Assembly (NCBI GenBank): GCA_038207335.1
Contig: JBBQZX010000019.1
Location: 48,681-112,680 of the forward strand
Direction: 5' to 3'
DNA: 64,000 bases
Origin: Chthoniobacterales bacterium
Lineage (GTDB): Bacteria > Verrucomicrobiota > Verrucomicrobiia > Chthoniobacterales > Chthoniobacteraceae
Shown: positions 57,001 to 64,000 of the stretch, in pieces
Layout: every line of letters starts with the position of its first letter
How positions within the stretch are numbered: the first letter of the stretch is position 1
Position numbers: made by a program

Positions 57001-60000
57001 GCGTCTGAAATTCGTGGTTTGCGCCGTCGATTTTGACGGCGGTGATGGCGGCGCCTTCCAGCGAGCTGAGGAGCACGCGGCGGAGCGAATTGCCCACGGT
57101 GTGCCCGTAACCGGCCTCAAAGGGCTCGGCGATGAATTTGGCATAAGTGCCTGTCGAAGTGGACTCTTCCTTGACGAGTGCCTTCGGCATTTCGAAACGG
57201 CCTAAACGAATAGCCATGATGTGTGATGAGAAAACCGCGCGCGGAAAATCCGCACCGTCCTCCCGTTTTACCTTTCTACTATTTCGCCGGGTTTCCCTCG
57301 GCGCGAGCGGTGTGCGATCATGAAAATCGCACACCCGAGGACCAACGGCGTATCTGTGTATTTGCGCTTGGGGGCGGGGAAGAGACACGATGTTCGAGCG
57401 GATGTAAACAGGGAATTCTTCGCGCAAGCCGATTAAATCACTCAAAGTAGGCAGCCGATGAATTCAGGCCGTCAGCGTCGCGCGTCACCGCTTCGCACAC
57501 AGCGTCGGCCACAGCACTGATCCAGCCGCCAGTCACTTCACCGGTTGCTAGCGCCCGCCGGCGCTGCCCTTCAGGCTGTCTGCGACACGCTATCTCGCTC
57601 CGCTCGGCTCGGTGGAAGCGGCGACGAAAAGCAGGGGAGTGAAGAAGCGGAGGTTCATGGAGGGGATGGGTGAAAGCTTGGTCACGAGTCATTCCGAGCG
57701 CTTACCTTGGCGCCAAACGGGTTCCTGCCGCGCGCGGCTGCATCCGCTGGAGCGAAAGGTGCCGCTCACGCAAGCGGTCGAGCATCTCCAGCTTTTCCAG
57801 CCACGGCAGCGCGCGCAAGCGGCGGCGTTCCGCTTCCTTGGATTGGATGATGTGCTGAAGATCGGGATTCACGGCTGGAGGAAACGTTTCTCGAACTTCG
57901 CCCAGGCATCAAGCAGCGAGTGACGTGCGAGGATGTCGCGCAGGCGGTCCAGGTCGGCGATCCCCGCTTCGACAAAACATGACCAGCCGCGCGTGATCCT
58001 TGGCGCGTCCGGTTTGGAGCGCCGTCCTGCATCTGAATCCCAACGGGATTCCATCATCGAGCCCAAGGTTGCCGCGTCTTCGCGGCTACCTTGGGTCGTT
58101 GGAGAAAACGCGCATCAACTCTGAAAGAGTTGCATCAATCCCACACATACCGTTCGTCGAATTCGATTTCGTAACGGCGGAGCAATTCGCGGAGTTCATC
58201 CTGAAACGAAATCTTGCGATGGTGTTCCGCCTGCCCGGCGATGTAAGTGCGCGCCGCCTCGACCTGCGAATGGCCGAGGGAGAAAACGCCATAGCCATTC
58301 TGCCACGCGAAGTCCGCCAGCGCGGGCGATTTCGTCTTCAGCCACACGGAGGAACCGCGTTTCAATTCCTTCACCACATCCGCCACCGTCGCCGTGCGGG
58401 AATGTGCGAAGAGCAGATGCACATGATCCTCGACGCCGCCGATGATGAGGGGCTGGCAACCGAGATTCGTGAGGATGCCGCCAAGGTAGCGGTGTAGTTC
58501 CTCGCGGAGCGGTTCGTCGCGCAGGAAAGGGCGGCGATCCTTGGTCGAGAAGACCGTGTGCAGGAGGATCTTTGCGAGCGATTGCGCCATGGCGTCAGCG
58601 TGGGTGGTCCTCCAGGCTGATTCAACTCTTTCAGAGTTGATGCCTGTTGATGACGTGTTCCCAAGGTAGCCCGCAGCGGGCAACCTTGGGCTGGATGATT
58701 TAATCCCGTTGGGATTGAGCCGTGGCTACGTTGGTAGGAATGGCGCGGTGCGAAGCGCACGCCGTGAACGCCAACGGCGTTCCATCATCCAGCCTAGGGT
58801 TATTTCGTTCCAACGAAACTACCCTGGGTCCATCCCACCCAACCAAACCGCCAACCCTGAAAGGGTTGAATCAGCCCCGTTCCGAGCAGAAAAACGTCAT
58901 TACCAGTCGATGAGCTGGCGAAAGTTCCGGCAACTTCCGATGTAAGCGTGGTTAATGACCGTGACCGGGTTCTTGGCCCGAAAAACCCCACTGCGGCCGG
59001 CCTTGCTTCGCTTCACCCGATGTCGTTTCTCCTCTACTTCGACTTCTACGCGATAGGTGTCATTGCCGCTGTGGCGTTCGAGGGTGAATCCTTCGTCGGT
59101 TACGCTGTAGACCCAATCTAGCTGCTGCAATTTGGCGTTGTTTACGGCGACCAAGAAGTCAGCCATTGAGGAATAGCGAGCATCCTCTTGAGCAATGGCC
59201 GCCCAGATGACCTTTCTAACTGGCGTGTCCACGTCCGCACCAAGCGTAGAGAGGTCCAAAATCTCGCCATCCTGAACAAGCTTGGCCAAGTCATCGTCGT
59301 CCAAATCTCCGAGGTCGTAGTTCAAAGAACCGCCGAGAAGTTGAAACAAGACGATCCCGAGCTGATACACGTCGCTTTTCGCACTGTATCCGGCGCCTGC
59401 CCAAACCTCCGGAGGCCTGTAAATTCGCGCATGCCGGCTCGCAAAAGCCCGGCCCGCATCATTCAGTTTGCTGGCAAGACCCAAGTCGGTAACCACCCCC
59501 TTTTTTTGCTCACCATTTAATCGAATCACGAGATTGGCCGGTTTCACGTCGCGATGAACAAAGCCCTTCTTGCTGAGATGCGACAATCCAGCAGCAACGT
59601 CATTGATGAGGTGAATGCAGGTATGGGTAGATGGCCAAATGCCCGTCGCAGTCGCATTATCGATGAGTTGTTGAAATGACCCTCCAGTGATCAATTCCAT
59701 CTCAAGCAGGATTTGCTCATCCTCCAAGGTATCTGCACCAAAGATACGCGCGAGATTCTCATGCTCTAGTTCCGTTAGGAGGTGAGGCTCCCGGAGGGCG
59801 GATCCAGCGTCAGCGGCTGATATTGGATAAACCTTCAGAAAGACATCACGGCCTACAAGGCTATTTCTCGCTCGAAAGACGGTTGCATTCTTCCCCGGAA
59901 CTAAAGGCTGAGCATTTGTAAACTTCGCAGGCAGCATGACGATGCTGAGCTATTTGTTTGCGCCCTTGTATGCCGCGGCCGCGGCTCCGTTCGCTCCTTG

Positions 60001-63000: not shown

Positions 63001-64000
63001 GATGAGTTCCAAGAGCAGCTCGGGAGATCGACCTTCGAGGAGCCAGAATTCGATCCAGTCCGCGCGCGGCGCGTCGGCATTCTCGCGATAGTGGATGTTC
63101 ACGAGCAAGTCGATCACCGGCCAGTCCCGGCTCCGCTGCGTCTTTTTTGCCTGAACGAGATCGGGGATGCAGAGGAGATCGAAGATCATGCCGGTGTCGT
63201 CGGCGAATGACGTGCGGCGATCCCACAGCACGTCGAAGGGCGGCAGGTCGCGGAGCCGGACCATCACATCCACTCGCAGTTCCTCGACGCCAGCGGCGGA
63301 GCAACGGAAGTGAACGGCGTGGCCGCGTTCGAGGGCTGGAACATCGAAGGGCGGCACCGCGATGCGCCGGGCATCGAGTGCGCTCATGGCGGCGAGGAGC
63401 CGCTCGTAATTTGCGGAGTCGGCGAGGAGGACGAGATCGATGTCCTTGCTAACCTGCGCCGCGCCGTAAAACACGCAGGCCTGCCCGCCCATGAGCAAAG
63501 CCTGGACGCCATTCGTCCGGAGCGTAGAAAGGACTTGTCGGATCGGGGTCGGGATCAAGGCTGCCTCCCATCGCCAGATAGTTGGCAAAAATCTTTTCGC
63601 TCTCGCGGAAGCGTTCGATCGGCGTGAGCGCGAGCCAATCCTTCCATTCGCCGGGAAGTTCCTCGTAGGTCATGGGGTTCCATTTAGCAGCATCCGGGCA
63701 TCGGTCCAAGGTGAGTTATCAGGGCCGTCGGTTCACGCCTTCGCGTATAGCTCGCTGCCTTTTTCGGCGAACTCCTTCGACTTCTCCTCCATACCTTTCG
63801 CGAGGGCTTCCTGTTCGGAGATGGCCTGTTCGGCGGCATATTTGCGGACGTCTTCGGTGATTTTCATCGAGCAGAAGTGCGGGCCGCACATGCTGCAGAA
63901 GTGGGCGGTTTTGGCACCTTCCTGCGGGAGGGTTTCGTCGTGGAATTCGCGGGCGCGCTCGGGGTCGAGGCCGAGGTTGAACTGGTCTTCCCAGCGGAAT

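Follow-up and report, generated by a model that had tools for sequence, protein, structure and literature searches.

Stacked thiC 3' ends and small toxin-antitoxin and defence cassettes in Chthoniobacteraceae and relatives

The stretch of Chthoniobacterales DNA analysed here (64,000 nucleotides, hereafter the window) contains an array of four same-strand copies of the thiC 3' end, which set apart four cassettes of toxin-antitoxin (TA) and defence genes. We think it fairly probable that the thiC tail acts as a common recombination arm for a family-wide pool of such small cassettes, by a mechanism that would depend on homology and not on an integrase. How lone TA and defence genes spread between chromosomes without a mobile element is, to our knowledge, an open question, and this locus offers a testable route for such genes along with a built-in way to express incoming genes.

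An array displaced from thiC

The survey's finding of four head-to-tail thiC 3' ends was borne out at the positions below. Its copy lengths stood only in part, as copies 2 and 3 had been given too short because palindromic elements split them. Over the aligned parts, identity of the copies to the full thiC on contig C38 is 87-92%, a divergence of 8-13%.

63733..64000, minus: thiC 3'-end copy 1, 268 bp or more, interrupted by the contig end; 92.4% nucleotide identity to C38 thiC; PF01964
63449..63709, minus: cassette 1, small ORF of up to 86 aa, no match in Pfam or PADLOC
62797..63588, minus: cassette 1, nucleotidyltransferase-like protein; AbiEii-named cluster at Atlas 0.98
62544..62772, minus: thiC 3'-end copy 2, last ~85 bp of thiC with two short palindromic inserts
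62318..62524, minus: cassette 2, Phd/YefM antitoxin; PF02604
62071..62325, minus: cassette 2, ParE/RelE toxin; PF05016, E 1.5e-12
61612..61941, minus: cassette 2, DUF2283 protein; PF10049
61373..61604, minus: thiC 3'-end copy 3, ~150 bp of thiC and an 86-bp palindromic insert at 61499-61584
61160..61372, minus: cassette 3, DUF2281 antitoxin-like gene; PF10047, E 2e-5, slightly below the curated cut-off
60831..61202, minus: cassette 3, PemK/MazF-like toxin; PF02452
60635..60834, minus: cassette 3, antitoxin-like gene of 66 aa, here a frameshifted copy; elsewhere the partner of a PIN toxin
60476..60627, minus: thiC 3'-end copy 4, 152 bp
59950..60408, minus: cassette 4, DUF3010-like protein, 152 aa; Pfam E 0.016; Atlas 0.93
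58900..59937, minus: cassette 4, Ser/Thr kinase, matching kinase models of defence systems, e.g., PD-T4-6 and MADS
56189..57217, minus: rpoA, flanking the insertion on the right; relatives have it directly behind the isomerase-like gene, here on C50

Copy 1 may represent the end of a second thiC, or else a long fragment. The palindromic inserts of copy 2 (62674-62737 and 62582-62662) recur at identical sites in loci L031, L012, L028, L082, and L066, and that of copy 3 does so in L008, L012, L014, L034, L039, and three metagenome contigs; folding of the three is weak to modest (z -2.2, -1.0, and -1.5). The left junction of copy 4 is common to L007 and, more loosely, L005.

The cargo previously listed (unknown ORFs, Phd/DUF2283, DUF2281-PemK, and an ORF with a kinase) is present, and to it we add the ParE/RelE toxin, the frameshifted antitoxin-like gene, and the nucleotidyltransferase-like identity of one ORF. 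The latter protein is AbiEii/DUF6036-like by Atlas features only: neither Pfam nor PADLOC gave a match, and the AbiEii-named cluster is without a common Pfam family. The adjacent small ORF is its probable partner, and the cassette is common to L008, L039, and L006 at 70-73% nucleotide identity. The DUF2283 gene of cassette 2 is also found beside a thiC fragment on C35, in L007, and in L154, and the DUF2281 gene of cassette 3 has a 95% identical nucleotide copy on C50. In cassette 4, the DUF3010-like label is a lead only, with the family on 22% of the members of its Atlas cluster, and the matches of the kinase are not proof of membership in PD-T4-6 or MADS.

The array had been placed behind the thiC gene itself. 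It is instead an ectopic block, lying in the interval between an isomerase-like gene (C50) and rpoA, which is empty in four close relatives, while the intact thiC is at its native locus on C38. A TPP riboswitch lies upstream of native thiC, and was the only Rfam match obtained (in 5 loci).

Recurrence and exchange of the cassettes

Of the family genomes that are at least 85% complete, 24 of 90 have multiple thiC ends, compared to 3 of 96 with multiple tails of the control gene gyrB and 4 of 38 with multiple tails of parE, the three counts having been made by hand with unequal query lengths and E cut-offs. This agrees with the earlier claim that multiple thiC tails are common in the family and multiple gyrB tails rare. 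Elsewhere in the family, thiC was matched in 124 genomes, with two to nine matches in 34 of them, and arrays of relatives hold up to seven stacked copies, with spacers of 0.5-3 kb and repeats of 37-333 bp; many relatives have a single-copy thiC end. The five parE 3' copies reported within 8.4 kb were also recovered (G114:C1); parE copies start at -135 to -440 and are unclustered. Some relatives' arrays carry Mrr, GmrSD, DpnII-like, or methylase genes, and a genome of another family (G504) has the same cargo types between host-type thiC tails. Genome G000 has two further gene-end duplications around inserted genes (63 bp on C4 and 84 bp on C12). All data are from metagenome assemblies, with one genome per species compared; the arrays belong to soil and freshwater Verrucomicrobia, and the family counts exceed chance. 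Assemblers break at the thiC repeats, so arrays are probably under-counted. A search of titles and abstracts, with subscription journals mostly outside its coverage, returned no literature on thiC-tail arrays.

Whole cassettes recur across genera in varying order, supporting the survey's view of thiC and parE tails as accreting, integrase-free sites for TA and defence genes. Spacers with matching ends are common to L004 and L006, which belong to two genera (720 bp at 93.6%), to L012 and L014 (658 bp at 91.6%), and to L024 and L031 (841/880 bp at 86.6%). The left junction of a copy keeps with its upstream cargo while the downstream cargo varies (L005.1, L006.0, and L015.1), and the copies themselves are mosaic. 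L006.0 has variants at profile ~360-368 in common with L015.1 and at ~415-449 with L004.0, and L024.1 and L079.0 have cargo 94% identical but a tail common over only the last ~12 bp (7 and 12 pairs tested; background identity 69-87%). The mechanism had been left open, and is no longer wholly so: crossovers at several places argue against one fixed crossover.

The left edges of the fragments are partly clustered, with 38 of 53 starting 129-169 bp ahead of the stop codon, in a single 40-bp zone, and 15 outside it. This is tighter than plain illegitimate joining predicts. Conservation of the thiC end is 93-97% at profile 291-350 and 73-84% at 351-430, and we can only suggest erosion to the last conserved block as the explanation. 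Unseen residues number 116 in 1514 codons of fragments versus 49 in 2294 codons of full thiC genes. Many fragments begin at the ATG of MKITEDV and were considered as translated peptides, yet they gather unseen residues, indels, and inserts, and this idea was rejected.

In the sequence of events that we propose, incoming DNA bearing a relative's thiC end and the gene behind it would recombine homologously at thiC, and its far end would join illegitimately within the resident tail. The outcome would be an intact thiC with its last ~130-170 bp duplicated behind the cargo, an "insertion with long target duplication". The cassettes are demonstrably modular and the copies mosaic, and on our reading a cargo unit, with an inferred enzyme, could move into or out of any thiC tail through a homologous crossover at any point of the repeat, every cargo holding on to its own downstream junction. 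In this way, arrays could grow and reorder without an integrase. Short-homology events would later move, cut, and fuse blocks, the array in the window being such a block, moved to the isomerase/rpoA gap, and the copies themselves would decay as pseudogene fragments. Copies diverged by 8-13% are poor RecA substrates. All 5 genomes tested have a ComEC-family gene, as do a genus without arrays and 10 of 14 control genomes. A group II intron reverse transcriptase was rejected as a driver, as a single broken copy lies behind a fragment in L034 only.

Alternatively, the cassettes could be minimal elements akin to cis-mobilizable elements (CIMEs), moved by a remote tyrosine or serine integrase acting on an att site in the thiC tail, near ATGAA-ATCACC or in the last ~17-20 bp, with the fragments as attR sites left by tandem accretion. 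We regard this as unlikely. The zone holding most of the left edges is what such a site might leave, remnants of 17-21 bp ending at the stop codon resemble the 8-60 bp cores of integrative mobilizable elements (IMEs) at the 3' ends of housekeeping genes, as given in part of PMC5704250, and G000 has seven over-cut-off tyrosine recombinase matches. These matches are away from the array, however; the left edges spread raggedly across the 40 bp and 15 of 53 fall beyond it, the breakpoints of the mosaics are not at one place, and parE edges do not cluster. The boundary site folds no better than shuffles (z -0.4). Its pattern, a single degenerate one, had no exact match in viral contigs, and an origin from phage attP was rejected. 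No integrase was found among 142 ORFs of thiC-array loci by Pfam, nor adjoining any copy in loci searched to ~14 kb, the reach being islands of up to that size and, for serine integrases, the Pfam-scanned ORFs. A tblastn search of 64 loci with eight G000 tyrosine recombinases gave two matches, 6 kb from any copy. The array in the window, reported as free of integrases, proved so in a Pfam scan, and scans of the window and of relatives' loci found neither integrase nor transposase inside repeat-bounded inserts. The two distant copies of G155 were considered as island ends and rejected, being long dead copies with inserts and, by eye, no integrase in the ORFs.

The Y1 transposase and the integrity of the assembly

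The array ends at a Y1 transposase gene that lies outside the repeat-bounded units and is flanked by hairpin repeats on both sides, a RAYT/TIRYT-type layout:

58600..58872, minus: REP-like hairpin block, fold z -3.5
58135..58590, minus: Y1 (IS200/RAYT-like) transposase; PF01797; clade linked to thiC ends
58033..58137, strand (.): REP-like hairpins past the Y1 gene, away from the array (inverted repeats I1 and I3)

This one Y1 clade is linked to the array end, where its role is putative and unproven. Among family copies of at least 80% identity, 12 of 14 are found no more than ~6 kb behind a thiC end or a fragment of one, in six genera, and the window Y1 is 97% identical to that of another genus. 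In seven loci the REP block begins at an identical base, 1-46 bp past the terminal ORF, and the displaced fragments L066 and L067 carry cargo, REP, and Y1 along. Such a pattern would be consistent with the Y1 (HUH) enzyme making the non-homologous joint, nicking single strands at the REP foot and at thiC look-alikes and joining the cargo, and also moving tail-cargo-REP blocks to new places in the manner of ISCR elements, which capture genes beside a duplicated integron 3' segment. We nevertheless hold this to be quite improbable. There is no REP at internal cargo-fragment junctions, no Y1 near the largest thiC arrays (L007 and L008), and none in the parE array or at 18 other parE loci; precise REP ends would result from any REP insertion, and the link may reflect hitch-hiking, with Y1 as one more cargo.

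An origin of the array in faulty assembly or binning, or as neutral local-duplication debris without exchange between lineages, is highly improbable and already largely refuted, even though C19 and C50 both end in repeats, contigs of several relatives too end within the tail, and the copy 1 junction has a depth of 4 versus 13-17 elsewhere. Against it, there is a difference of 8-13% between copies, their plan returns in many genomes, another family, and three metagenome contigs, and cassettes are common across genera. Independent contigs also cross copy 2 together with the flank on either side (2094 bp, 15 differences) and run from cassette 4 into copy 4 (1797 bp, no differences). The run behind these contigs may be the source sample; joints from runs X2-X4 were left out because they are probably from other organisms. 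In the single run that contains the region, the array contigs, rpoA, and the C38-type join have a depth of 13-17, and this likeness disfavours, but does not fully exclude, the earlier concern that the bin mixes two strains.

A predicted promoter and comparison with known systems

Beyond recombination, the tail probably gives some cassettes half of a hybrid, leaderless promoter, a role absent from the survey and suggested here from sequence:

62531..62559, minus: predicted hybrid promoter, TTTACG (thiC codons), 17 bp, TATCCT past the stop codon, and the Phd ATG 6 nt on

TTTACG is formed by the last codons of the thiC tail and would serve as a -35 box, to which some cassettes would add a -10 box 17 bp off and a leaderless start. 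The arrangement is that of a sigma-70 leaderless promoter, with TANNNT ~6-7 nt before the start and a -35-like hexamer 17 bp upstream. TANNNT at spacer 17 was found at 11 of 121 thiC ends (7 of 108 non-redundant) against a background of 0.5% per position. A family scan of spacers 12-29 gave 25 matches (14 at 17, 4 at 18, and 1 at 16), and all 14 at spacer 17 have an ATG 6-7 nt on that opens a Phd (7) or DUF433-type (7) gene. Three DUF433 cassettes retain just the last ~17-21 bp of thiC, beginning at the hexamer. The signal comes from about three related cassette families, the thiC-end count and family scan overlap, and roughly nine in ten thiC ends lack it, including those of window cassettes 1 and 4. 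At the hexamer site an NTT codon is used in 49 of 63 full thiC genes versus 6 of 319 other tail Val/Leu codons; NTT before Tyr runs at 25-32% genome-wide, and TTTAC is no commoner in fragments (41/58) than in full genes (44/63). With this -35/-10 pair, such cassettes would be independent of the riboswitch-controlled thiC transcript. TANNNT and leaderless TA genes are documented in M. tuberculosis, without a -35 consensus, in part of PMC3898074.

A bolder reading, which we offer tentatively as possible, is a self-sustaining, integrase-free counterpart of the integron, with the tail as both recombination arm and -35 box, a pool at the level of the phylum, and a dedicated Y1 for joining or seeding. 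If true, one short coding sequence would allow cassettes of TA and anti-phage genes to be inserted, expressed, and rearranged. Many ORFs between thiC copies have no Pfam match, and thiC and parE tails are places to seek new defence genes.

Among the closest known systems is the insertion of restriction-modification (R-M) genes with long target duplication, known mostly from competent species (Furuta, Abe & Kobayashi 2010; PMC2853133, in part), whose authors propose amplification and release via the repeats. In both, small defence genes without a mobility gene lie between long imperfect direct repeats that often span the stop codon and keep the target gene whole, and the thiC inserts are shorter than 20 kb, have direct repeats longer than 30 bp, and show one copy at empty sites. 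The published cases are single R-M insertions at scattered targets, and the word "tandem" is absent from the main text. Unlike them, the thiC arrays have stacked copies, mainly TA cargo (TA and a kinase in the window), one target gene reused family-wide, a pool of cassettes in common, arrays that have been displaced, and probably a role in promoters; the trigger proposed there, a restriction cut, does not apply to most thiC-array cargo.

Neisseria minimal mobile elements (MMEs) and maf/fha silent cassettes, as described in part of PMC1797815, likewise show recombinase-free swaps of small blocks via conserved host-gene homology, with arrays in which a part of the upstream gene is repeated as punctuation. 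However, MMEs replace one allele between two conserved genes and maf/fha swap a protein C-terminus, whereas in thiC arrays the repeat is a constant gene end, variable cargo lies past the stop codon and is added with a duplication, and downstream flanks vary.

In the CIMEs described in part of PMC5704250, units lacking an integrase are likewise stacked at the end of a gene, a copy of that end delimits each of them, and the cargo is TA and R-M. CIMEs need a cognate integrase, a fixed crossover, and an 8-60 bp core, in contrast to thiC repeats, mostly 130-170 bp, ragged, and mosaic, for which no cognate integrase was found in the searches above; thiC does not appear in the part of the CIME/IME target table considered. 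REPtrons and TIRtrons (PMC3733652, in part) share the IS200-family Y1 gene with flanking hairpin repeats behind coding regions, but the window hairpins begin GATTC/GATGC and theirs GTAG or CGTC, and a tie to one gene end and its cargo is not described in the portion cited.

Like integrons, the arrays hold small, compact, co-oriented TA and defence cassettes that reorder and recur between genomes. A true integron is present in G000 (TIGR02249 over cut-off at C3:278551, with attC-like repeats by eye), but a link to the array was rejected, as this sole over-cut-off IntI is on C3 and none adjoins the array. The thiC array is without IntI or attC structure, no attC palindromes being found between cassettes, where the separators are thiC coding sequence (boundary zone z -0.4). 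In further contrast to integrons, new cassettes enter at any thiC copy, and each joint, rather than one Pc promoter, seems to drive expression.

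Copies and cargo of the array

The window (C19:48681-112680) contains four head-to-tail copies of the thiC 3' end, as the survey's finding described, all on the minus strand and, in their aligned parts, 87-92% identical to the full thiC gene on contig C38 of the genome under study (G000).

Features of the array in the window (cassettes are the cargo downstream of each copy)
63733-64000, minus strand: thiC 3'-end copy 1
Cassette 1: small ORF, nucleotidyltransferase-like ORF
62544-62772, minus strand: thiC 3'-end copy 2, divided by short palindromic inserts
Cassette 2: Phd, ParE/RelE, DUF2283
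61373-61604, minus strand: thiC 3'-end copy 3, divided by a short palindromic insert
Cassette 3: DUF2281, PemK, small antitoxin-like gene with a frameshift
60476-60627, minus strand: thiC 3'-end copy 4
Cassette 4: DUF3010-like ORF, Ser/Thr kinase
Past cassette 4: REP-like block and Y1 transposase, then rpoA
61499-61584, 62582-62662, 62674-62737, 57460-57640: palindromic elements
57702-58066: small module, 56-aa ORF plus upstream piece

The earlier reading of the cargo (unknown ORFs; Phd/DUF2283; DUF2281-PemK; an ORF with a kinase) held, with ParE/RelE and the frameshifted antitoxin-like gene as additions; the cassette 1 ORFs had no match in Pfam or PADLOC. The inserts in copies 2 and 3 occupy thiC positions that are also used in other genomes. 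Palindromic elements of 65-90 bp, which start with NNCGAG and end with GTCAA, sit after GA at fixed sites of dead thiC copies, and occur also in loci L008, L012, L014, L031, L034, L039, L044, L045, and L066; the dead copies of genome G155 hold three. The 56-aa ORF module, without a Pfam or PADLOC match, is often found just past thiC arrays (also C38:23507-24379, L009, L020, L028, L032, and L132).

Probable recombination within the tail and a predicted promoter

Complete spacers recur end to end across genomes at different positions, and cassettes are shared and reordered. The left junction of a copy goes with the preceding cargo, not with the following cargo, which is what recombination of a cargo-plus-tail unit within the tail would give. 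The copies are mosaics with breakpoints that differ between copies (7 and 12 informative pairs only), a sequence pattern that argues against a single att crossover. An integrase acting in trans as maker of the array is unlikely, although it would suit the finding that 38 of 53 fragments start 129-169 bp upstream of the stop (one spurious internal match was removed from 54, and where an insert splits a copy, several edges mark its right half). This clustering may result from erosion down to the shortest homology that is still usable, since the edge zone retains 30-70 bp of the final well-conserved block; parE copy edges lie at -135 to -440. The thiC fragments decay, with 116 unseen residues in 1514 codons versus 49 in 2294 for full genes. 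A 37-bp thiC remnant at L007:5860-5921, left by a deletion that began inside a RelE gene and ended in the next copy, with 8 bp shared by the two ends, is a direct sign of short-homology erosion.

Pfam searches of 142 ORFs (a selection out of 218, with a few more that follow single thiC genes) identified PIN, Phd, ParE, HicA/B, HEPN with nucleotidyltransferase, DUF433/DUF5615, Zeta, Mrr, GmrSD, AAA_21, methylases, and one RT, and no integrase, in agreement with the survey. With eight G000 tyrosine recombinases as tblastn queries against 64 loci, matches were found in L020 and L040 only, each ~6 kb from the nearest copy. Many single-copy thiC genes directly precede similar cargo genes, and an AriAB-like ATPase lies directly behind the C38 gene. 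Elsewhere, a true integron integrase (TIGR02249 over cut-off) borders a tyrosine-recombinase island at G000:C3:278551-281018 and is accompanied by attC-like repeats and cassettes. At L034:4574-5760 (G012), the 3' domains of a broken group II intron RT run straight into a truncated thiC fragment.

Genes for Y1 (IS200/RAYT-like) transposases are common in the family (107 of 151 genomes), but 12 of the 14 copies at >=80% identity follow a thiC end or a thiC fragment at a distance of no more than ~6 kb. At seven loci the REP block begins at one and the same base past the final ORF. The Y1/REP unit is absent from internal junctions and parE loci, and is therefore not needed in cis. That Y1 drives array formation is quite improbable; it is perhaps a passenger, or else it could make terminal joints and move blocks.

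Cargo often starts 5-40 bp past the thiC stop, so that a promoter has little space there, and thiC itself is controlled by a TPP riboswitch (present at the C38 gene). The thiC codons V/L-Y-A read TTTACG, and TANNNT lies exactly 17 bp past this sequence in 11 of 121 ends (7 of 108 non-redundant) against a background of 0.5% per position. When spacers of 12-29 were allowed, 151 family genomes yielded 25 matches, spread over 20 of them (14 at 17, four at 18, one at 16, six elsewhere), a count that overlaps with that of the ends, the signal being carried by about three related cassette families. All 14 spacer-17 matches have an ATG 6-7 nt past the box, starting a Phd or DUF433-type gene. In three DUF433 cassettes, all that is left of thiC is its last 17-21 bp. 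The NTT codon is retained in 49 of 63 full genes versus 6 of 319 for other Val/Leu codons in the tail. In the window, cassette 2 has the full TTTACG-17-TANNNT pattern (62531-62559), cassette 3 a weak one, and cassettes 1 and 4 none. We infer from this promoter-like spacing that the thiC tail may supply the -35-like half of a cassette promoter; a -35 may, however, be unneeded at leaderless TANNNT promoters (M. tuberculosis, PMC3898074).

We consider it fairly probable that the array was born by homology-anchored insertion, in which the far joint would be illegitimate, that cassettes spread by RecA-type crossover, perhaps via transformation, and that the tail has a promoter function. ComEC was found in all five genomes tested, and also in controls.

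Position and occurrence of the arrays

The array does not lie behind thiC itself: the native-type thiC is that of C38, and the window array lies beside rpoA, a gene absent from all thiC loci compared. Neighbors of the C38 gene (PQQ-domain, VOC, dehydrogenase; named by eye) recur beside thiC in seven relatives. An isomerase-like gene ends 232-373 bp before rpoA in four of nine same-genus rpoA loci and 1257 bp before it in one, the remaining four being too short or having other genes there. In G000 this gene is single-copy, on contig C50. Its 3' side, as far as the contig end, holds cassette debris, a thiC end of 85 bp, and a copy of cassette 3 at 95%. Given the order in relatives and this debris, C50 and the window's contig, C19, are most likely two flanks of one insertion. 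By synteny, the position of the array is ectopic.

Read depth was taken from the one run in which 94% of the words occur. As this run may be the source sample, the check on the assembly is not an independent one. In contigs of that run (0-15 differences), the depth over rpoA and cassettes 2-4 is 13-17; it is 15 at a join that corresponds to the C38 arrangement and 4 at the copy 1 junction. The array is real and family-wide, an artefact being highly improbable.

The ThiC C-terminus was matched in 124 of 150 other family genomes, and 34 of these have 2-9 matches (hand count; ~4 appear to be second genes or split contigs), in keeping with the survey's statement that the architecture is common in the family. 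Several ends were counted for parE in 4 of 38 and, among genomes at least 85% complete, for thiC in 24 of 90 and for gyrB in 3 of 96 (two look like split genes), with cut-offs and query lengths that differ among the three genes. The spread of thiC arrays is patchy, with several ends in 12/28 genomes of genus g27, 8/14 of g10, 0/22 of g9, and 0/10 of g28. Regions of the first 20 relatives were selected for several matches, so locus counts are biased. Beyond the family, several copies occur in 2 of 79 matching genomes; G504, of another family, carries a true array in which the tails are of host type and the cargo types are the same. Searching species genomes for exact matches of 50 bases returned 25 stretches, every title Verrucomicrobia.

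Other gene tails and known systems

The parE tail also forms arrays, as previously proposed, with five parE ends inside 8.4 kb and TA-like cargo in genome G114. G000 has more gene-end duplications flanking inserted genes: 63 bp of a 3' end around one GDSL-like gene (C4:168755-169717) and 84 bp around one PEP-CTERM-like gene in opposite orientation (C12:104880-107595), which suggests a process that acts generally in this genome. Genes named by eye also lie downstream of parE (PIN-GNAT, ASCH-like, and PIN TA genes; L117, C33) and gyrB (a Phd-like gene; L116, C41) without a duplicated tail beside them, and a comM-like gene at C25:1687-8814 has two additional 3' fragments nearby. At L018 (G011:C3), a displaced thiC fragment beside RhuM and GmrSD genes is joined to what, by its motif, reads as a piece of a type I methylase gene; tails of different hotspot genes may accordingly mix.

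Our searches found no literature that describes arrays of thiC tails or a gene tail that doubles as recombination arm and -35 box, the supplementary target lists of PMC2853133 lying outside their scope. Insertion with long target duplication, going by the accessible part of PMC2853133, is the closest working likeness, here repeated many times at one target. CIME accretion (as outlined in part of PMC5704250) and integron arrays have a similar look, but the array here is without their defining features. It is possible, though doubtful, that the array is a counterpart of the integron made from a gene tail, with its own Y1 helper.
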